Part shown: in pieces, positions 2,682-62,099 of the stretch
Layout: the number at the start of each line of letters is the position of its first letter
How positions within the stretch are numbered: position 1 is the stretch's first letter
Assembly (NCBI GenBank): GCA_020718085.1
Contig: DYDB01000001.1
Span: 218,891 to 282,890 of the forward strand
DNA: 64,000 nucleotides
Direction: 5' to 3'
Source of the DNA: Micavibrio sp.
Lineage (GTDB): Bacteria > Patescibacteriota > Minisyncoccia > Moranbacterales > GCA-2747515
The notes under the pieces: generated by a model
The model's input: the letters and a program-made list of their open reading frames with translations, nothing else
Database searches by the model: none
Told to the model about the DNA's origin: nothing
Position numbers and translations under genes: made by a program

Positions 2682-2750
2682 TCCATCGCGTCCATCATGA
2701 GCGGCAGTCAATATTTGGCTGCCGCTCAATTGCTAGAAAGGAGTTTTTCC

Positions 2751-3785
2751 ATGAGAGAATTGATGATCACAGATCCAGAAAAATTGCATGCATACATGAG
2801 ATGTATGCATCAATCGATTGATGCGTGGGAAGATTCCTTGAAAAAACGCAATGGAGTTGACTGGCTATCATTCGATGAGATTCAGGTATGGCTTAAAAGA
2901 GTTCGTGTAACATTGGAGATCATGGAAAATGTCTATATCTTTGATGAGAAGCGATCTCTGATCGTAGAAACGTTGGGGTCAGGATTTCCAAAGAGACAAC
3001 ACTTTGATCATATCAATTTTACCAAAAGAACTGCGCGTTATGATAAAGGGCGCATACAAACGGTAAAGAGATCGTTTTTGAACGAGTTGTTCTCAAATGG
3101 CAATCAAATGCCGTCATTGGATCGTATCGCACGCTCACTGGCTTTTGATCTCCTTTTTCAAAATGAAGTTCTCGAAGCATTCCATTTTTCTGGAATTGAG
3201 AGAATCACAAACAATAATACGAGAGAGGATGCATTTGTATGTTCATGGGAACGCATCTCTGATGGCGTGCCTGTGAAGTACGTTATGTTATTTGACGTAT
3301 CGGATGGTTGGTCAATTCGAGAGCAAGATATGAATGAATTAGTGCTCATGTTACGTGAAAGGACGCTCTTTTTGGCACCAATGGAAAGAATTGCCAGAAG
3401 CATTGATGTGGCACATACTATGATCCATCCGAAATGGGTTGGACGCATCATACTTGGCCCTGTATTTATATCAGGCGTCACGTGTGATGATCATGCATTG
3501 CAATCAGCGCTGAACATTATTTCTTCCGAAGATATGATGAAAAGCGCATCGCGGATCATATACGAATACGTGATCTCGGAAAAAGAAGCTCCCGTTGATG
3601 GCGTGCATGATCAAAAGGGCAGGCTTCATACCACCATGCAGAAGTATGTTGTGCGATATGAACAGGAGCATTATCAGCGTGGTGTCACACATCTGGAAAA
3701 AATTCTTTTTGCAGAACATGACATTATACAAAAATTGGAGCCAGATTTTTTAAGAGAAATTGGCCATACGATATATGGTCATTGA
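2751..3785 (+). CDS. Hypothetical protein (operon member)
   Basis: ORF 2697..3785. ATG at 2751 is preceded by GAAAGGAG with a 7-nt spacer. Stop overlaps the next gene's start region. Confidence 0.6.
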   Translation: MRELMITDPEKLHAYMRCMHQSIDAWEDSLKKRNGVDWLSFDEIQVWLKRVRVTLEIMENVYIFDEKRSLIVETLGSGFPKRQHFDHINFTKRTARYDKGRIQTVKRSFLNELFSNGNQMPSLDRIARSLAFDLLFQNEVLEAFHFSGIERITNNNTREDAFVCSWERISDGVPVKYVMLFDVSDGWSIREQDMNELVLMLRERTLFLAPMERIARSIDVAHTMIHPKWVGRIILGPVFISGVTCDDHALQSALNIISSEDMMKSASRIIYEYVISEKEAPVDGVHDQKGRLHTTMQKYVVRYEQEHYQRGVTHLEKILFAEHDIIQKLEPDFLREIGHTIYGH

Positions 3786-9755: not shown

Positions 9756-10220
9756 ATGGAGCATATGACTGCTGAAGTACAAAAAATTGCGCACGCGCTC
9801 ATGGCATTGATCGATGGCGTTCGATGGACCGTTACACATATCGGCATTGAGAGGTATGTGGAAAACGGTCCGCAGTGGGTGCGTTTGGAAGTCGCGCTCG
9901 GTGATCAAAGGCATAAGTATCTGATTGCACGCAAGGAAATGGTTAGGGCATGGATTGCTTTGGATCAACGCGGAGAATCAATTGTTGAGGGTATGCAAAC
10001 ATTTGTCGATGGTCATGAATGGATACCTGTCGAGACGAATATCGTGCAGATCGATGGTGTACGGTGTGTACAATTGACCTTGCAGACCACGGATGCGATA
10101 ACTCGTCAAACAGTTATCATTGATCATCATGGTCTCGTGGATGCGTATTACGCACTACGAACTGGCATAGAGCTTCTTTCAGATGCACAAGAGGCAATGG
10201 GCTATCTTACCAGCTTTTAA
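9756..10220 (+). CDS. Hypothetical protein
   Basis: 154-aa ORF with a GAGGAAAG RBS. Confidence 0.55.
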   Translation: MEHMTAEVQKIAHALMALIDGVRWTVTHIGIERYVENGPQWVRLEVALGDQRHKYLIARKEMVRAWIALDQRGESIVEGMQTFVDGHEWIPVETNIVQIDGVRCVQLTLQTTDAITRQTVIIDHHGLVDAYYALRTGIELLSDAQEAMGYLTSF

Positions 10221-10724: not shown

Positions 10725-11696
10725 ATGAAAAACATGATATGGAGCGCGATCTTCCTCTGTTTTGCGGGAATGGGTTTGGCGTGGGGATATGTGTTTTTGT
10801 ATCATCATGCGAAAGTTGAGACGACTCAAGAGATTGCAGAACCTGTGATACCTGTTACACGTCCGGCGACGATCATATTTGCCGGCGATATGAATTTTGA
10901 TCGGTATATTCGACAGACGGCAGAGCACAATGGTTACGACAGCATTTTTACACATATAAGAGATGTGATGTACGAAAGTGATTGCGTATTTGCAAATCTT
11001 GAAGGACCGATCACAGAACATGGGTCAGTGTCTCAGGGCTCAGCGTTCGGCTCTGCTCAAAATTATCAATTTACGTTTGATCCCGTCATACGTGATACAT
11101 TGAAAAATATGAATGTCTGTGCGGTGAATCTCGGCAACAACCACATACATAATTTTGGTGATGATGGCATTTATAGCACAAAGAAATTTTTGGAAGAGAA
11201 AGAGTTCTTGTATGTTGGTGATACCGGTCTTGCAGAGGAAAAGCGATATGATGTGATCACGATCAATGACATAAAAATTGGCGTAGTAAATTATAATGCA
11301 TTTGTCGTGCAGTCACCGGAGCATGCGCGTGCAGATATGATCGAAATTAAAGATCAGAGTGATTTTGTTATCGTGTATACGCATTGGGGCGTGGAATATG
11401 CTAGTGTCCCACGTAGTATGGAAAGAGCGTTGGCACATGAACTGATCGATGCCGGAGCAGATGCGATCATCGGGTCACATCCGCACGTCGTCCAAGAAAC
11501 GGAAGAGTATAAGGGAAAGATGATCTATTATTCCTTGGGCAATTTTGTCTTTGATCAATATTTTCGCGCAGAAACACAAAAAGGACTTTTGGTTGCCGTG
11601 ACTTTTGATAAAGAACATGATACACTGACGTTTCGCGATTACGCCGTGTGTATGAAAAACACCGGTCAAACAGTATTGTGTGACAGTAAAAAATAA
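10725..11696 (+). CDS. CapA/PgsA-family metallophosphatase (poly-gamma-glutamate synthesis-like)
   Basis: N-terminal TM. Motifs GNNHIHNFG, HWGVEY and GSHPHVVQ are typical of the CapA family. Confidence 0.8.
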   Translation: MKNMIWSAIFLCFAGMGLAWGYVFLYHHAKVETTQEIAEPVIPVTRPATIIFAGDMNFDRYIRQTAEHNGYDSIFTHIRDVMYESDCVFANLEGPITEHGSVSQGSAFGSAQNYQFTFDPVIRDTLKNMNVCAVNLGNNHIHNFGDDGIYSTKKFLEEKEFLYVGDTGLAEEKRYDVITINDIKIGVVNYNAFVVQSPEHARADMIEIKDQSDFVIVYTHWGVEYASVPRSMERALAHELIDAGADAIIGSHPHVVQETEEYKGKMIYYSLGNFVFDQYFRAETQKGLLVAVTFDKEHDTLTFRDYAVCMKNTGQTVLCDSKK

Positions 11697-39180: not shown

Positions 39181-39256
39181 AGAACAAAATCAACATGTTC
39201 CAAGATGAAAACAGTTGGAAATTATAGCAACTATCCGGAAACTCCGAATAGTTCAC

Positions 39257-39280
39257 AAAACCCCATCAAATTGGCAAAAA
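39257..39280. repeat. Direct repeat AAAACCCCATCAAATTGGCAAAAA (left copy)
   Basis: 23 of 24 nt identical to 40377-40400. The pair brackets the promoter + ORF-free transcript + HD gene. Confidence 0.7.
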
Positions 39281-39293
39281 TGAATAAAAACAT

Positions 39294-39586: not shown

Positions 39587-40378
39587 ATGACAATTTACAC
39601 ACCAAAGATCCAAAAAGCGATTCAATTCGCGATCCAAACGCATGAGATCGATCAAAAACAAAAAAGAAAAGGTAAAGACATTGCGTACATCATCCATCCG
39701 TTGACTGTGGGACTGATCCTCGCACGTGCAGGTGCATCGGAAGATGTCATTGTTGCGGGCATTTTACATGATACGATCGAGGATTCGCTGGAACAGCATA
39801 AAGTCACAGCAGAAACAGTAGAAAAACTGTTTGGCAAAGAGGTGGCAACGTATGTGCTGAGCGTGACAGAAACAAACAAGGCATTGCCGTGGGAGGAACG
39901 CAAAGAACACGCCCTGGCACACATCGCGACATTATCAGAAGGATCCCTGCTAATCAAATCTGCAGATATCCTGGTAAATGGTACAGAACTTCTCGATGAC
40001 CATGCACAGCATGGTGATGCTGTATTTAAACGATTCAACGCCCCGAGCAAGGAACTGCTCATCAAAAATCAATTGCGTCTCATTACGGCGATCATAAAGA
40101 AGTGGGCTGATAACCCATTGGCACAGGACTTGAAATTCTTGGCGTATAGTTTATTTGGGATCTGTGAGTTGGCATTTATGATGGCTGAGCCGGCACGGAG
40201 CATTCCACACAGAGAATATGATGAGAATGCTGTGATCTCATGTCCAGTGTGTTTATGGCAGGGAATGGGGAGGGATGCATTATCGGAATCTGGGCATGTA
40301 TGTGTTGAGTTACGATGCCCAATCTGCGATAAGATGATCATTGTGGCTGAATTCGCGATGTTGAATAAAGCTTTATAA
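39587..40378 (+). CDS. HD-domain phosphohydrolase (RelA/SpoT-type HD) with a C-terminal zinc ribbon
   Basis: HPLTVGLILARAGASEDVIVAGILHDTIED matches the HD motif of (p)ppGpp hydrolases. C-terminal CPVC..CPIC. Confidence 0.7.
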   Translation: MTIYTPKIQKAIQFAIQTHEIDQKQKRKGKDIAYIIHPLTVGLILARAGASEDVIVAGILHDTIEDSLEQHKVTAETVEKLFGKEVATYVLSVTETNKALPWEERKEHALAHIATLSEGSLLIKSADILVNGTELLDDHAQHGDAVFKRFNAPSKELLIKNQLRLITAIIKKWADNPLAQDLKFLAYSLFGICELAFMMAEPARSIPHREYDENAVISCPVCLWQGMGRDALSESGHVCVELRCPICDKMIIVAEFAMLNKAL

Positions 40379-40400
40379 AACCCCATAAAATTGGCAAAAA
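40377..40400. repeat. Direct repeat AAAACCCCATAAAATTGGCAAAAA (right copy)
   Basis: Partner of 39257-39280, at the left border of the defense island. Confidence 0.7.
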
Positions 40401-40458
40401 GGGAAGAAAAGGGGTAGAATTATAATTATGTATTATAGAAATTTGAAAGAAATTAATT

Positions 40459-43400
40459 ATGACCTCCAAAAATAGCATTATCGACAATCATAGTCATAAT
40501 AACCTCTATCGAGCCATATCCGACGCAATAGGGTCTGACACAATAGGCATAGATATTGAGGTCGGATATTTTTATCTCTGTGGTTTTGAACTTTTGTCAA
40601 AAAAACTCAGTAAAATCAAAGTGCGATTATTAGTTGGTTCTTATATTGACCCAGAAGCTATGCCAACTTTGATAATGGAGTCGATGAAAAAATCAACGAT
40701 AAATCTTGATCCTTTTCAGCCTAGAAGCATTCCGTCATCAAAACAAGAAAGAGTCCGAGCTTTTAGCGAAGGCATTAAAAAACTTGCAAACCAAACGTCA
40801 ATATTTGACGCGCCGGAAGCACAGGAATCATACTCAATTCTCGAAAAAAAACTCGAGGATGGCTCCCTTGAAATTAAAATGACCGAAACACAAGCACATG
40901 GAAAATATTATGTGATCCATAATAAAAATGTAGGCAAAGTCTTTATGGGCTCGAGCAATTTTACGTATAATGGCCTAATTGGACAACAGGAAATAAACGA
41001 ATCTTTTGATTCAGAAGAAAAATATATAGAATATTCAAATAAATTTTCTGATCGATGGTCTGATGCTCGCAATATTGTCATTCAAGAAAAAGGAAAATCA
41101 GACATGTTTTTGAGAAAATTTAAAGATGAGCTGTGGATGAATGTGGTGCCGACCCCGTATCTTATGTATATTCGACTTCTTAATGAAATATTTGGTGCCG
41201 AATATGAAATTGATGTAACTAGCGCCTCGCAGGCAACACGAGGACAATATTTAAATCTTTCATATCAGATGGACGCGGTGAAGATGGCACTTGAAAGATT
41301 AAAAAATTATGATGGTGCTATTATTGCAGATGTTGTTGGTTTAGGGAAAAGTGTTATAGCTACTACTATTGCTGTAAACTGTCCTGACTTAAAAACGATC
41401 ATTATTGCTCCGCCACATTTAGTTCCGATGTGGGAGGATTATGTTGAAGAATTTAAACTTCGAGGACCAAAGGTTTTTAGTTCTGGGAAAATTGATGATG
41501 TTTATAATAAATACAAAAATTCTACAGAGCCTATATTATTTATCTTTGATGAAGCCCATAGATATAGAAATGAGGACACACAAGACTATCAGTCACTTCA
41601 TCAATTGACTCGCAGCAATAGTGAAAATAAGGTTCTAATATTATCCGCAACACCTTTTAATAATGATCCGAGTGATATCTTTGCGTTGATTAAACTTTTT
41701 CAAACCCCTGGTGCAGCTACACTCCGAACAGTGGAAAATTTATCAGCAAAGTTTGCAGATCTTGCAAATAGATACAAAATGCTGCGACGATTTCAAGCAA
41801 AGGGAGCCGTAACCGCAGATCAACGTAAAGAATTGGATATCAAGCGCGACGACATTGCTTCTGAACTTCGACGATTGCTCGAACCTATTATAATTAGACG
41901 TTCAAGGATAGATCTTGAAAAAATTACTCGATACCGAGAGGATTTAAAAGCTCAAGAAATTGAATTTTCAAAGATGAACGATCCAATTATCCGGGAGTAT
42001 GAGTTAGGTGAATTTACCAGCATATATCTGGATACTATAGAGCGAATTGTGCCAAATTCTAAAATCGCGGGTGGTTTAACTGGTGCGCGATATATGCCAA
42101 CGACCTACGCATTAGATATTGTTGAATTTGCTGAGAAGTATCCAGAATTGGAGGATATCAGAACTGCTCAAATGAACGTGGCTTCTTTTATGCGCAAACT
42201 TTTGGTAATGCGCTTTGAAAGTTCAAGAGCGGCGTTCAAAAGCACTCTGCAAAAATTTATCGATTCACATCAAAAAATTCTTGATTGGGTAGAAAAGAAA
42301 CAATTAGTACCGATTTCCAAGAAAGCCTACATTCCCTCTCCAGATGAGATGCCGGAAGAGGATACCGAAGAAATCAATTTGGAAGAACATGCTGAATTTG
42401 CAAACACTGAAGTTAAAAATAGTAAAAAGATTGTTTTCGTCAAACTTGAAGATCTGAATGAAAATTTTGTACCTGAGCTTAAGCGCGATATCAGTGTACT
42501 AAGAGATATTTACGAAAAATGGTTTGGTTCGCGATCGCCATTTTTATCGATGCCAGACCCAAAATTAAAACAACTCACGCTAGATATTCAAGAACATCTA
42601 GAAAATGATCCCCATCGAAAAATAATTATTTTTAGCATGTATGCTGATACTGTTGTTTATGTGGGAGAATCTCTGCAAAAGTCTGGAATTTCAACATTAG
42701 TTTATACTGCCCAGAATAGCAGAAATGATCGCAAAATAGTGAGAGAGAATTTTGACGCCGGTATCCCGGACAATAAACAATCTGATGATTTTAGAGTTCT
42801 TGTTGCAACTGATGCTTTGAGCGAGGGCGTAAATCTAAATAGAGCAGGACGAATTATTAATTATGATATTCCATATAACCCAACCAGAGTCATACAGCGA
42901 GTGGGCAGAATAAACCGCATAGATAAAAAAATGTTTAATGAGCTTTTTATTGATAATTATTTTCCTACCGAACACGGCGAGAAGGAAACAAATATTAGAG
43001 GGGTATCAACATTAAAGATGCAGATATTTAATTCCGTGGTAGGAAATGACTCGCGCACTCTCACGAAAGATGAAACCCCAGAATCATTTTTTATCGATGA
43101 ATTTAGAAAAGCAACGACTGAAGAAGAGAGTTGGGACACTACTCATAGAGAAGCATATGAGCAAGCAAAGAAAAATATTGAAGTAATTGAGCTTGCAAAA
43201 AAAATACCGATGCGAGCGCGAATTATTAGAAAAAATAAACAAGTTCAATTGGGAGTTGGCGTTGGTATTCGCGGCGAAAATAAAATTTATGCTCTTGAAA
43301 ATAGTGGACAGGCTGAGTTGGTTGATGCAGAAAAAGTATTAAATCATTTTGCGGCGAAGCAAGATGAAATTGGCGAGAAAGCCGATGATCAGTTTGGTGT

Positions 43401-43746
43401 TGTATTTGATGCAATTAAAGAAAAATTATTTGAAAAACCGCCGATGGGAAGAATGTCAAAAAACCGAACTGATGTTGTAAATATATTACGAAGCGTTCAA
43501 GAATCTCAGTATCAGAATTATTGTGATGATTTATTGCAAGTTGTGAGTGATCTTGACGATCTTTCAGAAGGTCAACTCAAGGCAATAATAAGGCTCGCAA
43601 AAAATACAGACGTATCTGATGATAAATTGCTGGAAGGCATTATTGAAATAGCGCCAGAACAGCAGATAAGAGTTAGTTTAGAAAGACAAAGCAATGAAAC
43701 AAAATCAGCAAATCTTCTATTATTCACTCAAGAGCACCGAGTATGA
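40459..43746 (+). CDS. PLD-family nuclease domain fused to an SNF2/SF2 helicase (restriction-type motor-nuclease)
   Basis: N-terminal PLD-like HxK..GSxN (HGKYYVIHNKNVGKVFMGSSNF). Helicase motifs I (DVVGLGKS), II (DEAHRYRN), III (LSATPFNN) and VI (QRVGRINR). Confidence 0.85.
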   Translation: MTSKNSIIDNHSHNNLYRAISDAIGSDTIGIDIEVGYFYLCGFELLSKKLSKIKVRLLVGSYIDPEAMPTLIMESMKKSTINLDPFQPRSIPSSKQERVRAFSEGIKKLANQTSIFDAPEAQESYSILEKKLEDGSLEIKMTETQAHGKYYVIHNKNVGKVFMGSSNFTYNGLIGQQEINESFDSEEKYIEYSNKFSDRWSDARNIVIQEKGKSDMFLRKFKDELWMNVVPTPYLMYIRLLNEIFGAEYEIDVTSASQATRGQYLNLSYQMDAVKMALERLKNYDGAIIADVVGLGKSVIATTIAVNCPDLKTIIIAPPHLVPMWEDYVEEFKLRGPKVFSSGKIDDVYNKYKNSTEPILFIFDEAHRYRNEDTQDYQSLHQLTRSNSENKVLILSATPFNNDPSDIFALIKLFQTPGAATLRTVENLSAKFADLANRYKMLRRFQAKGAVTADQRKELDIKRDDIASELRRLLEPIIIRRSRIDLEKITRYREDLKAQEIEFSKMNDPIIREYELGEFTSIYLDTIERIVPNSKIAGGLTGARYMPTTYALDIVEFAEKYPELEDIRTAQMNVASFMRKLLVMRFESSRAAFKSTLQKFIDSHQKILDWVEKKQLVPISKKAYIPSPDEMPEEDTEEINLEEHAEFANTEVKNSKKIVFVKLEDLNENFVPELKRDISVLRDIYEKWFGSRSPFLSMPDPKLKQLTLDIQEHLENDPHRKIIIFSMYADTVVYVGESLQKSGISTLVYTAQNSRNDRKIVRENFDAGIPDNKQSDDFRVLVATDALSEGVNLNRAGRIINYDIPYNPTRVIQRVGRINRIDKKMFNELFIDNYFPTEHGEKETNIRGVSTLKMQIFNSVVGNDSRTLTKDETPESFFIDEFRKATTEEESWDTTHREAYEQAKKNIEVIELAKKIPMRARIIRKNKQVQLGVGVGIRGENKIYALENSGQAELVDAEKVLNHFAAKQDEIGEKADDQFGVVFDAIKEKLFEKPPMGRMSKNRTDVVNILRSVQESQYQNYCDDLLQVVSDLDDLSEGQLKAIIRLAKNTDVSDDKLLEGIIEIAPEQQIRVSLERQSNETKSANLLLFTQEHRV

Positions 43747-46700
43747 AAAATCCTATTTTTGAAAATAAATTCAACGAAGAGGCTTTTAATGACTTTATTC
43801 ATGGCATTATTCCAAATCTTTCCTTGGGAAAAAAACGAGCCGAGGTTCGCACTGGCTTCAAATCAATTCAACAAATCGCTGAAGCCGGCGGAAATACACT
43901 AGATTTAGTCGTTTTTGTTGCAAAAATTGAATCATCACTTCATGCTCGTGTCGAAATTACAAAAAATACATACTCGATACTAAAAAGTCATGCCCGGTCT
44001 AATGCTTTAGTTGCCTATATTTCAGATGATTCTTCAGAATGGCGCCTCTCTCTTATTACGACAAAAGTTACGAGGACAAAAGACGGGATAAGGGAATCAA
44101 TATCAAATCCTCGCAGATTTTCATATGTCTTAGGGCCAGATGCAAAAGTGGCAACCCCTTCAAAAATGCTCCAAGGACATGTTGATTCAATTATTGATCT
44201 GGAAAATAAGTTTTCTTTGGCAGTGGTTAGCAAGGAATTTTTTACTCAAATAGCAACACAATATTCTAAACTTGTTGGAGGTACGAGGGGTGCAGGCAAA
44301 AAGGCAATAGTTTTCAAAAGAACGCTTAAGCTTGGGGATGAAAATGATGCCGTCAATGCAAATTTTGCCATTCGACTTATTGGTCGATTAGTTTTTTGTT
44401 GGTTTTTGAAACAAAAGAAAGGACATGCGGACAATCCGCTTATACCGTCTGAGATTCTATCTGTTTCCGCAGTAAAAACAATTAGTGATTATTATCATTC
44501 AGTTTGTGTGCCACTTTTTTTTGAAGTGTTAAATAAACCACAATCATCTAGACCGACATTTTATTCTCATGCTGAATTATTTGATAAAGTTCCTTTCTTG
44601 AATGGTGGTTTGTTCCAAGACCATGTCGAAGATAATCACAAATTCAATCGTGCCACCGGGATGAGTGAACGTCGCGGTGTGGTAGATGTGCCGGATGTTT
44701 GGTTTTCTGAATTATTTCAAATTTTTGAGGAGTATAACTTTACTATAGACGAAAACACTTCAATTGATACCGAGCTTTCAATCGATCCGGAAATGTTAGG
44801 ACGAATTTTTGAAAATTTATTGGCAGAGGTAAACCCGGAGACGGGCGCAAGCGCTCGCAAATCAACTGGCAGTTTCTACACACCTAGAGAGATTGTGGAT
44901 TTTATGGTGGAAGAATCACTCATCGCTCACCTAAAAACACAAATTAATATATCCGAAGATAAGTTACGTGCTCTTTCATCTTACGATTTGGACGATGATG
45001 TATCACAACCAATAGACCCGCAAGAACGAAAACTTATAGTTGAAGCAATTCATAATACCACAGTTTTAGATCCGGCCTGTGGCTCGGGCGCATTCCCAAT
45101 AGGAGTTCTCCAGAGATTGGTTCATATGCTCGGTGTTCTTGACCCGGAATGTTCAATTTATTTAAGCAAGATTCCGCCCGAAGTTCGCAGGGAATTACAA
45201 AAACATAGCCTTACTTATGTGCGGAAACTTGGAGTAATTAGAGAGTGTATTCACGGAGTAGATATTCAGCCCATCGCTATAGATATTTCGCGTCTGCGAT
45301 GTTTTCTGACGCTTGTAGTAGATCAGCAAGTTGATGACAGCGCTCCAAACAGAGGCATTGAACCATTGCCAAACCTTGATTTTAAGTTTGTTTGCGCCAA
45401 CACTCTTGTTAAACCACCAGTTCATGAAGGTCCGCTATTTGGTGATGAGTTTGCGACTGCTTTAGGCGAGCTTATTGATGAATATTTTGCGCCGGTTGAC
45501 CAGTTGCACAAACTGGAGACGGCGCGAAAATTGCAGCAATTGATTAGTGATAAAACAAAAAAAGAGTTAGAAAATATTTTGAAGTCATATAGTTACATAA
45601 AAGATGAAAAATACAAAAAAGCACTGGCTCAGAAAAATGAAAAATCAGACGCTGAAAGAATGCGCATAAATAATTTGTGGGGAAGTTATGAAAATATTTT
45701 TCAAAATAAACCAGTTGGCTTTTTTGATACCAGATATTTTTTCCCCACAGTATTTCGCAATGGTGGATTTGATATTGTGATTGGAAATCCACCTTATGTT
45801 GGAGAAAAAGGACATAAAGAGATGTTTAGGGAAATTAAATATTCACCACTGGGAAAGAGATTTTATCAAGGAAAGATGGATTTTTTCTATTTTTTCTTTC
45901 ATGTAGCTTTGGATAATTTACAGGATGATGGGGTGCTGGCGTATATAACCACTAATTATTACTTAACAGCATTGGGTGCGCGGAAACTTCGGGAAGATTT
46001 TAAAAACCGTACTATTATCAAAAAACTTGTTAATTTTAACGAGCTTAAAATTTTTAAATCGGCTGCGGGTCAACATAACATGGTTACAATTTTAACTAAA
46101 AGACAAAACAACGGAACATTAGTTAAAACATGTATAACGAAAAATACAGGCGATACAACTCCTGCTGTACTAGAAAGTATTATTGGTTGGAAAGACAATA
46201 ATACAGACTACTATGAAGTTGCTCAAAAAGATTTATATGATGGGGAAGAGAATTATTTGCGTCTAGCTGGAACAAATAGTGAGCGTAATCCTCTACAGTT
46301 CTTATTGAATAAGATAAAAGAGAAGGGTGAATTATTAGAGAATATTTGCAATATTAATACTGGAATAATGGGAGGCTGCGATTATATAAATAAAAGTAAT
46401 ATTGAATATTGCACACAAAGAGAAAGGTTACAAAAAGATATTCAGGTAGGAGATGGTGTTTTTGTTCTTGATATAAAAAATGATCGAGATAAAAAAGTAT
46501 TTGATATTATTCAAAACAATAAATCTCTAGTGAAATTTTTTAAAAATTCAGATATTGTTAAGTATCATACAAGCTATTCAACAACAAAATATATCATTTT
46601 CTCATCTAGAGAAAATGATGCAGTAAAAGATAGCAATGTAATGAAGCATCTGGATAAATTCAAACAAGTTCTTATAAAAATTCGTGAAATAAATAATGAG

Positions 46701-47201
46701 AAAACTTCAGATTACCCATTTCTTAGACGAGGAACTTCTCATCAGGAAATATTTGTATCGCCTAAAATAGTTACTCCATATCGATGTTCTGTAAACTTGT
46801 TCGCATATAATGATATTCCTTGGTATGCGAGAACTGATGTGTATTATTTATCTGAAAAAGACAAGAGAATATCTCTTAAATATATACTCGGCTTGTTAAA
46901 TTCAAAACTTTATTATTTATGGCTCTATCATCGTGGAAAAAGAAAAGGAGAGCTTTTAGAAATATTACAAAAACCTTTATCTGAAATTCCAATTAAAAAA
47001 ATACCAGAGCTAGAACAAAAACCCTTCATCGAAATTGTTGATAAAATTTTGACAATTACCAAATCCAGCGATTATTTAGAAAATCCAGCAAAAAAAGCAG
47101 AAGTCGAAAAGTACGAAGAGGATATTGATAAGCTTGTTTATAAGCTCTATGACCTTACGTATGAAGAAATTGAAATTGTGAAAAAATCAATTAAAAAATA
47201 A
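43743..47201 (+). CDS. Gamma-class N6-adenine DNA methyltransferase (Eco57I/PglX-like) with large N- and C-terminal (TRD-like) regions
   Basis: SFYTPREIV, DPACGSGAFP (motif I) and NPPY (motif IV, IGNPPYVGE). Start overlaps the upstream stop (ATGA), so translationally coupled. Confidence 0.85.
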   Translation: MKNPIFENKFNEEAFNDFIHGIIPNLSLGKKRAEVRTGFKSIQQIAEAGGNTLDLVVFVAKIESSLHARVEITKNTYSILKSHARSNALVAYISDDSSEWRLSLITTKVTRTKDGIRESISNPRRFSYVLGPDAKVATPSKMLQGHVDSIIDLENKFSLAVVSKEFFTQIATQYSKLVGGTRGAGKKAIVFKRTLKLGDENDAVNANFAIRLIGRLVFCWFLKQKKGHADNPLIPSEILSVSAVKTISDYYHSVCVPLFFEVLNKPQSSRPTFYSHAELFDKVPFLNGGLFQDHVEDNHKFNRATGMSERRGVVDVPDVWFSELFQIFEEYNFTIDENTSIDTELSIDPEMLGRIFENLLAEVNPETGASARKSTGSFYTPREIVDFMVEESLIAHLKTQINISEDKLRALSSYDLDDDVSQPIDPQERKLIVEAIHNTTVLDPACGSGAFPIGVLQRLVHMLGVLDPECSIYLSKIPPEVRRELQKHSLTYVRKLGVIRECIHGVDIQPIAIDISRLRCFLTLVVDQQVDDSAPNRGIEPLPNLDFKFVCANTLVKPPVHEGPLFGDEFATALGELIDEYFAPVDQLHKLETARKLQQLISDKTKKELENILKSYSYIKDEKYKKALAQKNEKSDAERMRINNLWGSYENIFQNKPVGFFDTRYFFPTVFRNGGFDIVIGNPPYVGEKGHKEMFREIKYSPLGKRFYQGKMDFFYFFFHVALDNLQDDGVLAYITTNYYLTALGARKLREDFKNRTIIKKLVNFNELKIFKSAAGQHNMVTILTKRQNNGTLVKTCITKNTGDTTPAVLESIIGWKDNNTDYYEVAQKDLYDGEENYLRLAGTNSERNPLQFLLNKIKEKGELLENICNINTGIMGGCDYINKSNIEYCTQRERLQKDIQVGDGVFVLDIKNDRDKKVFDIIQNNKSLVKFFKNSDIVKYHTSYSTTKYIIFSSRENDAVKDSNVMKHLDKFKQVLIKIREINNEKTSDYPFLRRGTSHQEIFVSPKIVTPYRCSVNLFAYNDIPWYARTDVYYLSEKDKRISLKYILGLLNSKLYYLWLYHRGKRKGELLEILQKPLSEIPIKKIPELEQKPFIEIVDKILTITKSSDYLENPAKKAEVEKYEEDIDKLVYKLYDLTYEEIEIVKKSIKK

Positions 47202-47278: not shown

Positions 47279-47680
47279 ATGAATTACAATAATTTTTATC
47301 AACCAAAGAAACGCGTATTTATTAGCTTTGATTTTGACAACGATCAATTTCTCAGGGATTCTCTTATTGGTCAATGTAAAAACAATGGCACGCCGTTTGA
47401 TATGGAGGATTGGTCAGTGAAAGAGCCATGGAGCCAATGTGATTGGAAAGAAAAATGTTTGTCTAAAATCAAGAGATGTAATTTAGTTATTGTTATGGTG
47501 GGAGAGAAAACACATACTTGTAGCGGAGTGTTAGCTGAAATAGCAATGGCGAAAGAAGCTCGTGTTCCAGTTGTTGGATTAAAAGGCTATTCTAATAAAA
47601 ATTGCCCCAGACCGGAAGGATTGGATGGTTACTATAATTGGGCATGGGAAAATGTAAAAAAACTAGTTAATAGATATTAG
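47279..47680 (+). CDS. Short TIR-like (ThsB / DUF1863-type) domain protein
   Basis: RVFISFDFDND..CNLVIVMVGEKTHTCSGVLAEIAMAKEARVPVVGLKG parallels ThsB SVTVVLIGAETSNRRWVKYEIEESYKRGNGLLGIYI. Confidence 0.65.
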   Translation: MNYNNFYQPKKRVFISFDFDNDQFLRDSLIGQCKNNGTPFDMEDWSVKEPWSQCDWKEKCLSKIKRCNLVIVMVGEKTHTCSGVLAEIAMAKEARVPVVGLKGYSNKNCPRPEGLDGYYNWAWENVKKLVNRY

Positions 47681-47685
47681 ATAAT

Positions 47686-48168
47686 ATGGATAAAAAGCTT
47701 CTTAATAGGTCTGTGCAAGAATACGGTGAGAATTATTATGCTCATTATTTCGAACAATACAAAATGTATATTGAAAGCACCGAAAGAATTAGCGATAGAA
47801 GGCAGAATGCAAATAATTTCTTTTTAACTATTAATACCGTTCTTATATCCGCATTTGGATTGTCTTTTCAACTTAAAGTACTAGAAAATCTTAATTGGAT
47901 AAAAATGATTTTAGCATTACTCGGGCTTGTTATTTGTGTGATATTTTGGTTTCTGCTTAGGGCTTATAAGCAGTTAAATTCTGGCAAATTTAAAGTTATT
48001 CACGAAATAGAACAAAATTTGCCATTAGGATTATATGATTATGAATGGGAGCTTCTTGAAAAAGGAAAAAATAAAAAAATTTATTATCCATTTTCTCATA
48101 TCGAATTGTTAATACCGTGGGTATTTGGTTTATTCTATTTTGTTTTAGGAGTTATTTTTATAGTATAA
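47686..48168 (+). CDS. Small 2-TM (SLATT-like) membrane protein, putative effector partner of the TIR protein
   Basis: 5-nt gap after the TIR gene. 160 aa with a soluble N-terminal helix, two adjacent TM helices, a helical C-terminus and a terminal hydrophobic segment. Confidence 0.45.
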   Translation: MDKKLLNRSVQEYGENYYAHYFEQYKMYIESTERISDRRQNANNFFLTINTVLISAFGLSFQLKVLENLNWIKMILALLGLVICVIFWFLLRAYKQLNSGKFKVIHEIEQNLPLGLYDYEWELLEKGKNKKIYYPFSHIELLIPWVFGLFYFVLGVIFIV

Positions 48169-48227: not shown

Positions 48228-49652
48228 ATGGCAAAAAAAGAAGCTACAAACGAGCTGGTAAATTACGATAGGCAAATGGCTCAACATCAAGAGCAATTTT
48301 TGACTTTGCTTGGTAGCAAGGGTTTGCCAACAGAGAATATATTTGTTCCAATCAAAGAAAGATCCACTGTTTTTTCAAATGCTAATTCTTTGTTAGATAA
48401 TATTGATGATACAAGAAGATTTGAAGCAGTTTACGTTTCTAAATTTTTTGCTGCAGTTGCCGTTGGTTTATTTGATGCTGCATTGAATTATCTTTGGGAT
48501 GAGACGGTCGTTCATTTACGAAAAAGAGTTGAAACATATGATCTTGAATATTTTTATGACATAGCAACTTCAGCTGACAAAAGAAAAGAGCTCAAAACCA
48601 TAGATGATATTTCTAAGCTTACAGATGATGAACTGTTGAGAGGATCACTTACAATTGAGCTTATATCTGAGGTTGGATTTAGGAATATGGATCTTGTAAG
48701 GCATATGAGAAATAATGCTAGTGCAGCACATCCAAACCAAATGAATATTACGGGCCTCAAGTTAATTTCGATGGCAGAAGATTGTCTGAGGGAAGTTATC
48801 TCAACACCAATTCCGCCTGCAGCTATAGCTGTCCAGAAGCTACTTGAGAACATAAAAACTACCACAATGAAAACTGGCGATGCACAAGACGTGTCAGTGC
48901 ATTTTTCTAGTATGGGGCCAGTTCGAACACAAAGATTGGTCGAAGGGTTATTTGGAATTTTTTATAAAAGAGAAACAACTGAGGCCGTAAGACAAAATAT
49001 TAGACTACTCGCACCAATGCTTTGGCCTTACGTGGATGAACCTACTAGAAAGAATTTAGGCCTAAAGCATGCATATTTTAGTGCAAATAATCATATTGTA
49101 GAAAAGAATTTTTCCAAAGAGTTCTTGGCTGTTGTTGATGGTCTTCAATATATAACTGATCAGCATAGAGCAATAGAAGTTTCTACAGTTCTTGAGGAGC
49201 TAAAAAATGCGCATTATGGTTTAAATAATTTTTATAATGAAGTGTTGCCTGCACGGAGACTTAAATCAATAATTGGAGATGTGCCCAGTGTTCCCATGGG
49301 GATTCAAAATAAGTATATAGAAACCTTAATTGATGTATTTCTGACGAATGGATATGGCGAAGCGCGATCTGCAAATGACATATATTTCGAATTAATAAAT
49401 GGCTTTACCCCAAAACAAGCCGTTTATGCGATAACCTTAATATTTGATGAGGGAATTTCGAGTAAATTAAGAATTAAATTGTGTGCAGAAAAATATTACG
49501 AAATGATTAAAATTGTTGAACCAAAAATATCTACACATGCTGCCAAGCAGTTAATCGAACAGATAAAATTAAAAAAAACACAGGCAGGAGATATTAGGTC
49601 TGATGAAAAATTAAAGCAAGTCGTAAAATTAGCGCTAGAGGAAATTAGATGA
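48228..49652 (+). CDS. Hypothetical 474-aa protein with an Rx6H (HEPN-like) motif
   Basis: RNNASAAH within LVRHMRNNASAAHPN. No other recognisable domain. Confidence 0.55.
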   Translation: MAKKEATNELVNYDRQMAQHQEQFLTLLGSKGLPTENIFVPIKERSTVFSNANSLLDNIDDTRRFEAVYVSKFFAAVAVGLFDAALNYLWDETVVHLRKRVETYDLEYFYDIATSADKRKELKTIDDISKLTDDELLRGSLTIELISEVGFRNMDLVRHMRNNASAAHPNQMNITGLKLISMAEDCLREVISTPIPPAAIAVQKLLENIKTTTMKTGDAQDVSVHFSSMGPVRTQRLVEGLFGIFYKRETTEAVRQNIRLLAPMLWPYVDEPTRKNLGLKHAYFSANNHIVEKNFSKEFLAVVDGLQYITDQHRAIEVSTVLEELKNAHYGLNNFYNEVLPARRLKSIIGDVPSVPMGIQNKYIETLIDVFLTNGYGEARSANDIYFELINGFTPKQAVYAITLIFDEGISSKLRIKLCAEKYYEMIKIVEPKISTHAAKQLIEQIKLKKTQAGDIRSDEKLKQVVKLALEEIR

Positions 49653-49692: not shown

Positions 49693-49726
49693 GTAACATA
49701 ATCCAACGGCCGTGGAATTATGTTAC
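49693..49726. repeat. 34-bp palindromic cassette-boundary repeat, copy A (GTAACATAATccaACGGCCGTggaATTATGTTAC)
   Basis: 10-bp AT-rich arms, ACGGCCGT core, followed by TTTTAGAGAATAATTTA. The next start codon lies 29 nt downstream. Confidence 0.9.
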
Positions 49727-49754: not shown

Positions 49755-50477
49755 ATGACGAAAAAAATATCGTTTAGTGATAAATTAATTGAGTTTTATC
49801 TGACTGTTTTTGTTGTTACTCTCATTTATCTTTATTTACATCACGAATATTTTGCAATGGGTGTTTTAGTCGTTACAATGCCTTGGCCAGTAGTTGCATA
49901 TATTTTATATAAAAAGAGAAAAAAGCGATCTTTTTTTGAAAGTAATAATTCACTGGAAAAAATTAGAGCGTTGACTCCGATGCAGTTTGAGGATTTTATC
50001 TGTCACTTGTTTGATAAATTGGGTTATGTGACGGAAAGGGTGGGTGGCTCGAGTGATGGTGGTATTGATGTGATTGCAACAAAAAATGGGGTGAAGCACT
50101 ATATTCAATGTAAAAAATTTATTACTAGTCAGGTAAGTGTTGGTGCGATGCGTGATTTTTATGGTGCTGTGACAGATAAACTTACAGATGCAAAATCATT
50201 TTTTATCACAACAAATATTTTCACGCTTGAAGCAGAACAGTTTGCTGAAGGGAAGTCGATAGAGTTAATTGATGGGAAAAAACTGATGGACTATGTAAAA
50301 CTGGCAGGTATCGATGCGCCAGCATCGGATCAGACAAGTTCCAGTGGTGATACTGCAGAAAAGTGTCCAAATTGTGGAAACGATTTGATTCTAAGAACTG
50401 CACGAAAAGGCACTCACGCCGGAAAAACTTTCCTCGGTTGCACAAACTACCCCCACTGCCGATTTGTCAAAAAGTAA
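49755..50477 (+). CDS. Membrane-anchored Mrr-type (PD-D/ExK) restriction endonuclease with a C-terminal topoisomerase-type C4 zinc ribbon
   Basis: Mrr_cat signature GGSSDGGIDVIATKNGVKHYIQCKK..FITTNIFT..LIDG; CPNCG..GCTNYPHCRF. Its stop codon lies inside repeat B. Confidence 0.75.
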   Translation: MTKKISFSDKLIEFYLTVFVVTLIYLYLHHEYFAMGVLVVTMPWPVVAYILYKKRKKRSFFESNNSLEKIRALTPMQFEDFICHLFDKLGYVTERVGGSSDGGIDVIATKNGVKHYIQCKKFITSQVSVGAMRDFYGAVTDKLTDAKSFFITTNIFTLEAEQFAEGKSIELIDGKKLMDYVKLAGIDAPASDQTSSSGDTAEKCPNCGNDLILRTARKGTHAGKTFLGCTNYPHCRFVKK

Positions 50478-50507
50478 CATAATCCCACGGCCGTAGAATT
50501 ATGTTAC
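50474..50507. repeat. 34-bp palindromic cassette-boundary repeat, copy B
   Basis: GTAACATAATCCCACGGCCGTAGAATTATGTTAC followed by TTTTAGAGAATAATTTA. Confidence 0.9.
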
Positions 50508-50537: not shown

Positions 50538-50762
50538 ATGATAAAAAATAGCACTGCACTGATCAAACCAAACAAATATATCTCAATAGCGATTTCATTA
50601 TTATTTGCTGGTGTATTTCTCTATCTATGTGGAAGAGATGTTAAGATGATTCTGGACAGTCAGGTGACTCTTGAGCCGATAAAATATGTGGCTGCAGTAA
50701 TATGGGGCGCGGCTACAGTCGCAATGGTTGTACGGGCATTTAAGACGATCTTTGCCAAATAA
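50538..50762 (+). CDS. Small 2-TM membrane protein
   Basis: 74 aa with two hydrophobic helices; starts 31 nt after repeat B. Confidence 0.4.
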   Translation: MIKNSTALIKPNKYISIAISLLFAGVFLYLCGRDVKMILDSQVTLEPIKYVAAVIWGAATVAMVVRAFKTIFAK

Positions 50763-50775
50763 TAACAAACCACAT

Positions 50776-51129
50776 ATGACTGATGCAGTACGAAAATATA
50801 TAGCTAAACAAGATCCCCAGAAAAAAGCGATATTGGAGAAATTACGCACATTGATCCAAAAGGCTGCACCGTTGGCGCAGGAGTGTATGAGCTATGGTGT
50901 ACCGGCTTTTAAAATTAATGGTGGCAATCTGGTCATGTACGCCGCATTCAAAAACCATATTGGCATCTATCCCGAGCCCGATACGATTCTGGCATTTACC
51001 AAAGAGCTTGCGGGATACAAAACCGCCAAAGGGTCGATCAAATTCATGTTGGATGAGCCGATCCCTTATCCTTTGATCAAAAAGATCATCACATATAAGT
51101 ACAAAAAACTCAAGGAAAATTCTAATTGA
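50776..51129 (+). CDS. DUF1801 (YdhG-like) family protein
   Basis: ORF 50728; internal ATG at 50776. Sequence resembles the YdhG/DUF1801 family. Confidence 0.55.
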   Translation: MTDAVRKYIAKQDPQKKAILEKLRTLIQKAAPLAQECMSYGVPAFKINGGNLVMYAAFKNHIGIYPEPDTILAFTKELAGYKTAKGSIKFMLDEPIPYPLIKKIITYKYKKLKENSN

Positions 51130-51145
51130 GTAAAATGCAAAATAT

Positions 51146-51394
51146 ATGACAAAAATCGCCACTGGCGTTGTGCATAAAGTCCCAAAAGATCTAAAAGAAA
51201 TGTTGATAGGAAATCCAGACATTTTGACAATATGGAATAGTTTAACCCCGCTTGCACGCAATGAATGGATCTGTTTTCTCGTAAGTGTAAAGCAGGAAGA
51301 AACACGAAGAAAACATCTGACTCGAATACAAGAGGATCTTAGCAAAGGAAAGAAACGTCCCTGTTGCTGGGCCGGATGTCCACATAGAAAATAA
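51146..51394 (+). CDS. YdeI/OmpD-associated family small protein
   Basis: C-terminal ..KQEETRRKHLTRIQEDLSKGKKR matches the YdeI-family ETRxxRi..L..GKK motif. Confidence 0.5.
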   Translation: MTKIATGVVHKVPKDLKEMLIGNPDILTIWNSLTPLARNEWICFLVSVKQEETRRKHLTRIQEDLSKGKKRPCCWAGCPHRK

Positions 51395-51411: not shown

Positions 51412-51445
51412 GTAACATATTCCCACGGCCGTAGAATTATGTTAC
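51412..51445. repeat. 34-bp palindromic cassette-boundary repeat, copy C
   Basis: GTAACATATTCCCACGGCCGTAGAATTATGTTAC. Confidence 0.9.
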
Positions 51446-51474: not shown

Positions 51475-52029
51475 ATGAATATTGACAATAGAAATAATCA
51501 CAACGCACGTGAAAAATCGCACGCAACGACAACTCGATCTTCCTATTTTATGATGTGGATCATTGTTGGTATCGTAGTGTTCTTAATATTTTTTATAATA
51601 CTTGTTTTTGGTATATTTTTGTTTCAAAAGAATGGGGATAATATGACAACATATGTTTCCACGTCGACTACTGATAAAAAAAACAACCATACATCACTGA
51701 AACCACATGATCCATGTCAAGATTTACTTGCAGGCATGTATCCAGACGGACGGGTTGAGATTAGGGATGAGTCAGACCTGCGCATCATATTGAATGAAAC
51801 TATGCAAAGATTGGCGCAAGTCAACAAAGACCTTTTAATTACATATGACGAGTCCTGCTTGATTTATATAATCACGACTAAATCACTTGTACACAATGAA
51901 AATGATAGCCTAGATGTAGCATACTACAATACGATTGCAAATGAATATATTACTTACTATGACATGGATTCTGATAATCTAAGAAAGGCTCTGGAAATAT
52001 TATTCAATGGAACTCCCAGATCAAAATAA
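51475..52029 (+). CDS. Hypothetical membrane-anchored protein
   Basis: 184 aa with an N-terminal TM helix; single-gene cassette between repeats C and D. Confidence 0.5.
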   Translation: MNIDNRNNHNAREKSHATTTRSSYFMMWIIVGIVVFLIFFIILVFGIFLFQKNGDNMTTYVSTSTTDKKNNHTSLKPHDPCQDLLAGMYPDGRVEIRDESDLRIILNETMQRLAQVNKDLLITYDESCLIYIITTKSLVHNENDSLDVAYYNTIANEYITYYDMDSDNLRKALEILFNGTPRSK

Positions 52030-52116: not shown

Positions 52117-52150
52117 GTAACATATTCCCACGGCCGTATAATTATGTTAC
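52117..52150. repeat. 34-bp palindromic cassette-boundary repeat, copy D
   Basis: GTAACATATTCCCACGGCCGTATAATTATGTTAC. Confidence 0.9.
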
Positions 52151-52162
52151 GCTTGGTATGTT

Positions 52163-52726
52163 ATGTACAAAATAGGGAAGGTACAAAAAAAGATCCTTAT
52201 TTCACTTTTTGGTGGTGTCGCACTTGGTCTTTCACATTCGCCACGACAGTATTTTGCAACACTTTCGGTTATCCATAAAGATTGGCAAAAGATCAATCAA
52301 CGCAGTTTTGCGCGATCACTCAAGAGACTATCTCAAGAAAAACTCATCAAAGAATGTAAGATGCCGAATGGGTCATATAAACTTGTTTTGACTGCAGAGG
52401 GGAAAAAGATAGCGCATCAGTTAGACCTCTTTGGATCGGTCAAAACATTTATAAAACCCAAGAAATGGGATGGAAAGTGGCGCATTGTGATCTTTGATAT
52501 ACCGGAAAATGATCGTGTATTTCGTGATATTTTGCGCAAGCATCTCTATACATTGGAATTCAAACAATTACAGCAAAGTGTTTTTGTCTCACCGTATCCG
52601 TGTGAAAAAACGATATTAGATCTCGTGCGTCTATACAATGCAGGCAAATATGTTCGAGTAATTACAGCATCAGACATCGACAACGCTTCTGATCTCAAAA
52701 AACATTTTTTCAAAAAGGTAAAGTAA
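52163..52726 (+). CDS. PaaX-like regulator with a Cas2-fold C-terminal domain
   Basis: WRIVIFDIPENDRVFRDILRKHLYTLEFKQLQQSVFVSP resembles the Cas2/PaaX C-terminal fold. N-terminal wHTH-like. Confidence 0.5.
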   Translation: MYKIGKVQKKILISLFGGVALGLSHSPRQYFATLSVIHKDWQKINQRSFARSLKRLSQEKLIKECKMPNGSYKLVLTAEGKKIAHQLDLFGSVKTFIKPKKWDGKWRIVIFDIPENDRVFRDILRKHLYTLEFKQLQQSVFVSPYPCEKTILDLVRLYNAGKYVRVITASDIDNASDLKKHFFKKVK

Positions 52727-52756
52727 CATAATTATACGGCCGTGAGATTATGTTAC
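52723..52756. repeat. 34-bp palindromic cassette-boundary repeat, copy E
   Basis: GTAACATAATTATACGGCCGTGAGATTATGTTAC; the preceding gene's stop is in the repeat's left edge. Confidence 0.9.
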
Positions 52757-61736: not shown

Positions 61737-62066
61737 GTTAAATATTATAAAGATACACGCTATCAACCAACTTTATGTCGCACAATGTAGAGTATACATT
61801 TTACATAAAAACAGGGGACTTTAATAATTTTTTATAATACATTCAGACTCTCCCCAAGAAATCTTATAATTATTTAAATCCAAACGACGTATCGACGATG
61901 TTACTAAATTTTTTTTATACTATTCTTTAATCATATAAATAAATTTTTTTGCAATCATAAACTATAAAATCCAAATTTAAATTCTTATAGATTTTGTTAA
62001 GCGCACATTGATATATGATTCATATCGAACTCAATTTAATATGTAAATTTTTGTCCATACAACGCG

Positions 62067-62099
62067 TAACATAATTCTACGGCCGTCAGATTATGTTAC
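62067..62099. repeat. Palindromic repeat copy F (GTAACATAATTCTACGGCCGTCAGATTATGTTAC)
   Basis: Same family as the cassette-boundary repeats A-E, located 9.3 kb away in a non-coding region. Confidence 0.9.

Follow-up and report, generated by a model that had tools for sequence, protein, structure and literature searches.

The gene analysed here encodes a membrane-anchored nuclease in which two N-terminal transmembrane (TM) helices precede an Mrr-type catalytic core and a C-terminal zinc ribbon of the topoisomerase I type. We see about an even chance that this protein is a stand-alone DNA endonuclease, which would be held on the cytoplasmic side of the membrane and defend the cell against DNA entering from phages, plasmids or transformation. 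The protein itself is an ordinary member of a large and already annotated family. The less expected feature, and the one that deserves follow-up, is the array in which the gene resides together with a PaaX-like resident gene: to judge from sequence comparisons, the nuclease gene is a repeat-bounded module of an array that exhibits real cassette-like turnover at the repeats. Unless a related locus is named, positions refer to the window, i.e. the whole 64-kb stretch of DNA that was analysed.

Table. Features of the nuclease gene, of the palindromic sites (S1 to S6) and of the neighbouring modules in the window.
Feature	Positions	Strand	Basis or remark
Site S1, palindrome GTAACATAATCCA-ACGGCCGT-GGAATTATGTTAC	49693..49726	.	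ends 28 nt upstream of the nuclease ATG
Membrane-anchored Mrr-type nuclease gene with C-terminal zinc ribbon	49755..50477	+	ATG start, 240 aa
Codons of the TM hairpin (TM1 aa 11-29, loop HHEY, TM2 aa 33-52)	49785..49910	+	hydropathy and AlphaFold2 model
Mrr_cat PD-(D/E)xK nuclease domain, aa 70-179	49962..50291	+	Pfam, alignment, fold matches
Topoisomerase-I-type C4 zinc ribbon, aa 202-240 (C204, C207, C229, C235)	50358..50474	+	Pfam, alignment, model
Site S2	50474..50507	.	overlaps the nuclease stop codon
Module: 74-aa membrane protein, DUF1801 protein, OmdA/YdeI-like protein	50538..51394	+	next after the nuclease module
Site S3	51412..51445	.	pattern search
Module: 184-aa membrane protein, no family match	51475..52029	+	ORF
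Site S4	52117..52150	.	ends 12 nt before the PaaX-like gene
PaaX-like protein (wHTH + Cas2-fold, 187 aa)	52163..52726	+	Pfam PaaX_M match, model
Site S5	52723..52756	.	overlaps the PaaX-like stop codon
Site S6	62066..62099	.	outlying copy, 9.3 kb downstream of S5

The three-part architecture had been proposed in a sequence-only reading of this DNA and was borne out by Pfam searches, hydropathy analysis, an alignment of 29 homologues and an AlphaFold2 model. The central domain matched Mrr_cat (PF04471; aa 70-179) with 92.8 bits, well above the cutoff of 21 (E=2e-26). The motifs DGGIDVIA and HYIQCKK, on which the assignment had been based, are both found in the protein, and the catalytic residues E79, D101, D105, Q118 and K120, as well as C119, are invariant in the alignment of the 29 homologues. 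At the C-terminus, Zn_ribbon_Top1 (PF01396; aa 202-240) was detected with 49.7 bits against a cutoff of 32 (E=3e-13). Four cysteines are conserved in this part of the alignment: all homologues have the zinc ligands C204, C229 and C235, and at least 90% of them also have C207. The N-terminal 60 residues are hydrophobic throughout the 29 sequences, yet the sequence itself is not conserved. The two TM helices that had been claimed for this region correspond to hydrophobic segments at aa 11-29 and 33-52 (Kyte-Doolittle score >1.7), which are linked by HHEY. Basic residues precede TM1 (K3, K4, K10) and a KKRKKR stretch (aa 53-58) follows TM2. From hydropathy and the positive-inside rule, an N-in/C-in hairpin is predicted, which would place the nuclease domain on the cytoplasmic side. 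The alternative that the hydrophobic region represents a cleaved signal peptide was checked and rejected on account of the two hydrophobic helices, the lack of an obvious small-residue cleavage motif after the first of them and the basic cluster after the last. The reading frame ends with a TAA stop codon at 50475-50477. An identical 240-aa protein, surrounded by the same neighbouring genes, is recorded from a groundwater metagenome.

In the AlphaFold2 model, which was built on the 29 homologues (pLDDT 83), a helical hairpin is followed by an alpha/beta core and, beyond a disordered, low-confidence linker (aa 191-200), by a small beta-ribbon. The core adopts the restriction-endonuclease-like alpha/beta fold, and the best PDB matches retrieved by Foldseek were MspJI (4f0q, E=1e-5), AF1548 (1y88) and AspBHI (4oc8). 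Further fold relatives of the core are NucS and archaeal Hjc, the distant ones including Holliday-junction resolvases. The zinc ribbon aligns with the C-terminal ribbons of E. coli Topo I (4rul). Neither Pfam nor NCBIfam gave a match to a reader domain for modified bases (Mrr_N winged helix or SRA-like), residues 1-69 consisting of the TM helices and a linker, and neither DUF4041 nor GIY-YIG was detected in the nuclease by Pfam. The PADLOC models cover the nuclease domain alone, with mREase_IV matching at 1e-14.

Membrane tethering of a restriction-type nuclease had been considered unusual, a claim that fails in view of the size of the family. A word-indexed search retrieved 513 relatives, nearly all of which are 210-260 aa long and carry the same Pfam pair; those named belong to Moran-, Nomura- and Falkowbacteria and other Patescibacteria. 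Scanning of one genome per GTDB species yielded 98 relatives, overwhelmingly from Patescibacteria, and an exhaustive profile search among 1.84 billion representatives returned 798 clusters (50% identity) at E<=1e-30. According to a simple hydropathy test, at least one N-terminal TM segment is present in 117 of the first 120 matches and in about three quarters of the next 148. A net charge of at least +2 in the 12 residues following the last TM was observed for 75% of 224 family proteins. The TM anchor and the positive juxtamembrane cluster are thus kept across the family, but not the sequence of the TM segments, whose number varies from 1 to 3 or more.

The family also occurs on plasmids. A tblastn search of PLSDB returned 609 plasmid records, 141 of which cover at least 80% of the query, with E. 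coli, Klebsiella, Citrobacter, Bacillus, Vibrio, Nitrosococcus and Alteromonas as hosts. Four examples were checked; all possess Mrr_cat and Zn_ribbon_Top1 behind 1-3 TM helices, and they are annotated as 'restriction endonuclease' or 'DUF2034 protein'. Family members such as WP_052684030.1 (E. coli/Klebsiella MOBH plasmids), WP_150154382.1 (Alteromonas) and WP_025809639.1 (B. subtilis plasmid) have the same domain order and an N-terminal anchor as the protein analysed here, with 28-36% identity over 80-98% of the length and both Pfam domains above threshold. They differ from the CPR proteins, which form a tight subgroup of their own (42-65% identity), and the number of TM helices is one in the Bacillus protein and three in the E. 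coli plasmid protein, as compared to two here. A further homologue (L092), encoded at 217946-218968 of E. coli plasmid pECTOK-001_1, is a 340-aa protein with three TM helices, Mrr_cat and the zinc ribbon. This homologue also travels on related Klebsiella, Citrobacter and Serratia plasmids, the carriers being MOBH/MPF_F conjugative plasmids of clinical Enterobacteriaceae, and it would be an easily testable representative of the family. NCBIfam holds no model for the combination of TM segments, Mrr_cat and zinc ribbon. The family is widespread and has been annotated already, but it is apparently uncharacterised. The present protein adds a CPR branch to this very large unstudied family, which also rides on plasmids of clinical Enterobacteriaceae and Bacillus and is easy to test.

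The genomic neighbourhood points to defence. Ten relatives with long flanks were inspected, and in each of them the gene is located among defence genes or next to them. Its neighbours are Type I RM genes and a Shedu-like gene in L004, ThsB-TIR and 8xMP in the window and in L006, DpnI and a methylase in L009, Type III RM genes, AAA_13 and DUF2779 in L011, and methylases, HNH and a serine recombinase in L010. All-against-all clustering of the neighbour ORFs from 85 loci revealed no conserved or obligate partner gene. The nuclease gene is found at the 3' end of diverse defence operons: it is preceded by DUF2779 in 6 of the 85 loci, by Type I HsdR in 4 (with a gap of 50-266 nt), and in ~6 by an SLFN-g3/DUF2075 helicase gene, which is accompanied by a MazG-like gene and located 2-70 nt upstream on the same strand. 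N6_N4 methylases are nearby in 16 of these loci, and RadC is encoded 5-13 kb upstream in 6. As no partner is conserved and the upstream defence modules vary, the nuclease is most likely a stand-alone accessory defence gene rather than a subunit of a fixed system. The possibility of a conserved housekeeping factor, which had been raised as a further alternative, was ruled out by the patchy distribution, the variable neighbours, the location in defence islands and the plasmid homologues.

Additional observations were made in the defence island of the window. A 39-nt direct repeat (39252-39290 and 40372-40410, 82% identical) around an HD_4-domain gene (39587-40378) lies at the left edge of the island. 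Positions 40459-47201 hold two overlapping genes, one for a PLD(HKD)-SNF2 helicase of 1095 aa and one for a methylase of the Eco57I/TaqI_C type of 1152 aa, which together make up a Type IIG/DISARM-like restriction module. A ThsB-like TIR protein (133 aa) and, 6 nt later, the 8xMP 'octameric membrane protein' (160 aa) are encoded at 47279-48168. This pair is kept together in L006 with 83-84% aa identity and is likely a two-gene defence module composed of TIR and a membrane effector, which PADLOC does not recognise as a system. A 474-aa ORF (48228-49652) between this pair and site S1 is without match in Pfam, PADLOC and NCBIfam; it matches phage family phrog_27609 of unknown function (E=3.5e-60).

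The nuclease gene and the next three modules are bracketed by 34-nt palindromic sites. In the window, the site can be written as GTAACATAATnnn-ACGGCCGT-nnnATTATGTTAC, i.e. its frame consists of 13 nt, ACGGCCGT and another 13 nt. Searching the 64-kb window with this pattern detected 12 strand-matches, whereas 0 were expected. The six copies are located within 12.4 kb and none is present in the other 51 kb of the window. The interval between S5 and S6 contains NUDIX, SDR and nitroreductase genes and, in addition, the housekeeping-type gene mltG/YceG, which shows that the sites do not bound small accessory modules alone. Three other Moraniibacteriota (L004, L009, L015) carry related sites, with the same frame and different arms, downstream of their nuclease homologue. 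Such sites are also found in four CPR-like metagenome contigs; a 597-kb contig carries one cluster only. In the Moraniibacteriota-like locus L014, the nuclease homologue lies between 46-nt direct repeats that are non-palindromic (9965-10010 and 10727-10772, 85% identical).

A gap-free alignment of 30 distinct site copies revealed an invariant central CGGC.GT. The arms vary between sites, even inside one genome, but remain complementary. Compensatory changes were observed in 13 of the 15 pairs. Double-change cells amounted to 82 as compared to 40 +/- 5 upon shuffling, none of 500 shuffles reaching 82, and the covariation signal collapsed in slid controls. An invariant core with covarying arms indicates that the element is selected as an inverted repeat or as a hairpin with a fixed apex. 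A.C mismatches, which correspond to G.T pairs on the bottom strand, occur 44 times versus 16 G.T pairs on the top strand. Moreover, most copies are preceded by an A-run; seen from the bottom strand, this is a T-run behind the hairpin, and the site is possibly read on this strand. No match for the repeats was obtained in Rfam at a permissive E-value, and a consensus terminator scan did not call them as intrinsic terminators. IMG/VR, searched in regard to a phage origin of the sites, contained no match for either site pattern. An assignment to genome-wide REP elements was rejected because the copies are clustered, as evident in the window and from the single cluster in the 597-kb contig; a Y1_Tnp gene is absent from the window.

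The gene had also been described as an integron-like cassette, and this description holds in part. Indeed, co-oriented ORFs are located between structured repeats and the content of the modules varies at the repeats. However, no integrase or other recombinase domain was found among the window ORFs scanned (~100 aa or more, 64-kb window), and no recombinase is listed in the annotated flanks of five related loci (L004, L009, L106, L107, L108). The sites are not attC-like either. attC sites are 57-141 nt long and possess conserved outer R''/R' boxes (RYYYAAC...GTTRRRY) and a variable centre, while dif sites follow an 11-6-11 scheme. At 34 nt, the present sites are too short for attC, and their conservation is inverted, the centre being fixed and the base variable; when compared with the attC boxes, the outer boxes match at 5 of 7 positions in the window and at none in L004. 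A canonical integron was rejected for these reasons. A literature search on integrons or attC in Patescibacteria returned nothing relevant, and no flanking repeats were found for the Vibrio chromosomal homologue, which was considered as a possible integron cassette.

Comparison of related arrays provides the evidence for turnover at the sites. L004 and L015 have the nuclease gene and the first site in common (88% identity) and again everything from the PaaX-like gene onward (95%), but the intervening modules differ and the breakpoints coincide with sites. A GNAT module is located downstream of the nuclease gene in L004 and upstream of it in L009. L106, which represents the array of the closest relative, carries the site type of the window and a PaaX-like protein of 88% identity, and is devoid of the nuclease gene and the next two modules; only the site-PaaX-site unit is common to both arrays. 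In addition, site s3 of L004 (9901-9934) is a hybrid of two adjacent sites of L015 (12806-12839 and 12874-12907), joined inside the shared core TGACGGCCGTC, and at this hybrid site the two loci differ by a 68-bp segment without ORF. As read from the two sequences, the hybrid site marks a crossover or slippage event within the core. Tandem sites without ORF are also present in L098 and L106. Turnover could result from a site-specific recombinase encoded elsewhere, or from homologous recombination or slippage between the repeated sites. A related observation concerns L103, in which positions 2589-3311 encode a 240-aa protein that combines two TM helices at the N-terminus with a NERD nuclease domain. 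The gene follows a methylase gene and directly precedes the first site, which is the slot occupied by the Mrr-zinc ribbon (Mrr-ZnR) gene in other arrays. The two-TM NERD protein in the equivalent slot suggests that 'membrane-anchored nuclease' is the trait selected at this position of the array.

The PaaX-like gene is the resident of the array. It encodes a protein of 185-187 aa and has a site on either side in each of the nine distinct loci examined (window, L004, L009, L015, L101, L103, L106, L107, L108). In these loci, one site is located 10-100 nt before the ATG and the other at the stop codon or up to ~1.2 kb beyond. The fold of the protein is nearest to E. coli PaaX, Rv0674 and Cas2, with the N-terminal half of the model being of low confidence, and the NCBIfam PaaX score is far below the cutoff. 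There are more than 790 homologues, the best 120 of which exhibit at least 60% identity. The PaaX-like protein may bind the sites. On the simplest reading, the palindromes would serve as operators, possibly also as terminators, of a PaaX-like repressor and would double as recombination hot spots. A more far-reaching proposal, which we put forward tentatively and consider rather doubtful, is that the palindromes with the CGGCCG apex and the always-adjacent PaaX-like protein constitute an undescribed, integrase-less platform for the exchange of gene modules in Moraniibacteriota (CPR). Crossover would take place within the conserved 8-12-bp core, and small defence and accessory genes, including Mrr-ZnR and the TM-NERD gene of L103, would be stored and shuffled beside the defence island. 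Little mobile-element machinery is attributed to CPR bacteria. Exchange of small genes at structured sites beside a defence island would therefore be a new handle on how reduced CPR genomes diversify their defences.

How might the nuclease work? In the mechanism that we favour, the N-in/C-in hairpin of two helices and the basic juxtamembrane stretch would anchor the protein, and the Mrr-type PD-(D/E)xK core, with all catalytic residues intact, would represent the cutting module. The four-cysteine zinc ribbon, which is of the kind used by topoisomerase I to bind DNA and is held on a flexible linker, would capture DNA near the membrane, which the nuclease, probably as a dimer or oligomer, would then cut. 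Confinement to the membrane would keep the enzyme off the nucleoid, and location would thereby provide at least part of the discrimination between self and non-self, as has been shown for the unrelated SNIPE. From the position of the palindrome 28 nt upstream of the ATG, the nuclease gene is probably controlled by the local PaaX-like repressor. Some observations speak against a stand-alone membrane defence nuclease: identities of 42-65% across CPR classes are above what is usual for fast-evolving defence genes, the PADLOC matches are confined to the nuclease domain, and a sensor or phage-contacting surface comparable to DUF4041 of SNIPE was not identifiable in the nuclease sequence.

The strong Mrr_cat match, the proximity of the fold to the catalytic domains of MspJI and AspBHI and the mREase_IV domain match in PADLOC would also fit a classical Type IV restriction enzyme, which cuts DNA with foreign modifications in the manner of E. 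coli Mrr or MspJI and for which the anchor would be incidental. Type I/II/III RM genes in the neighbourhood, an arrangement like that of 'immigration control' loci, are consistent with this as well. However, no modified-base reader was found, the protein being composed of membrane helices and the zinc ribbon besides the nuclease domain, and no other accessory feature is retained as consistently across the family as the anchor. We regard this explanation as unlikely. Distinctly unlikely, in our view, is an Abi effector, which would stay inactive until infection and then kill or arrest the cell through degradation of the chromosome and/or holin-like membrane damage by the TM hairpin. A number of TM segments varying from 1 to 3 or more and their unconserved sequence are expected for a plain anchor rather than for a pore, and a conserved sensor domain or partner gene is missing, even though Mrr_cat serves as effector in Avs/NLR and Lamassu systems and an Abi role had been suggested in the sequence-only reading. 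The authors describing Epona likewise report fusion of Mrr_cat to a holin-like 2-TM domain (10.1101/2024.07.02.601686).

The remaining two explanations leave defence aside. Auxotrophy of CPR bacteria is established, and the nuclease could degrade DNA arriving through the competence channel, feeding a cell that is unable to make nucleotides. Within Patescibacteria, members of the family are very common and show strong conservation, and a position at the inner membrane face together with a ribbon of the kind that Topo I uses for binding single-stranded DNA would suit ssDNA leaving ComEC. A role in nucleotide salvage or DNA uptake is nonetheless improbable: presence of the gene is patchy, it resides in variable islands and not beside competence genes, it is missing from the array of the closest relative (L106), and plasmids of free-living bacteria capable of nucleotide synthesis encode proteins of the same architecture. 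Alternatively, the nuclease could recognise or cleave the palindromes with the CGGCCG apex and thus help to move gene modules. Its gene is located in the first module or directly before the first site (window, L004, L009, L015), and Holliday-junction resolvases are among the distant fold relatives. But the family extends far beyond the arrays: the gene occurs without such sites in L012, L013, L017, L039 and L011, arrays exist without the gene in L103, L106, L107 and L108, and in two arrays (window, L009) sites lie on either side of the gene, as they would for a passenger. An array nuclease is thus highly improbable.

Among known systems, integron attC/IntI arrays and the pdif/Xer modules of Acinetobacter plasmids resemble the array in that co-oriented small genes are located between structured palindromic repeats and the content of the modules differs at the repeats, including here one hybrid junction inside a conserved core. 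They differ from it in several respects. No IntI or Xer gene is nearby in the window, the sites measure 34 nt (13-8-13) and vary in the arms but not in the centre, and the PaaX-like regulator is a conserved resident gene. The Type IV enzymes E. coli Mrr, MspJI and AspBHI have the family and the fold of the catalytic domain in common with the nuclease, but they are soluble and equipped with a modified-base reader domain, neither of which applies here. Judged by its published description, Epona is alike in being a single protein with Mrr_cat and two TMs that is carried as a cassette of an array; it resides in the sedentary chromosomal integron of V. cholerae and possesses anti-phage activity (10.1101/2024.07.02.601686). 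A zinc ribbon is not mentioned for Epona, and the array that carries it is a genuine integron, having both IntI and attC, unlike the array studied here.

SNIPE, a membrane-bound nuclease of the GIY-YIG type, cleaves phage DNA as it is injected and is kept from self-cleavage by its anchor (Nature 2026, PMC13190303). By way of analogy only, the layout is the same, i.e. an N-terminal TM anchor is combined with a cytoplasmic DNA-binding module and a nuclease. The folds are unrelated, since SNIPE consists of GIY-YIG and DUF4041 behind one TM with the N-terminus outside, whereas the present protein employs a PD-(D/E)xK core and a zinc ribbon. A second, unrelated and much commoner fold with a SNIPE-like layout would suggest that spatial confinement of nucleases is a general strategy.
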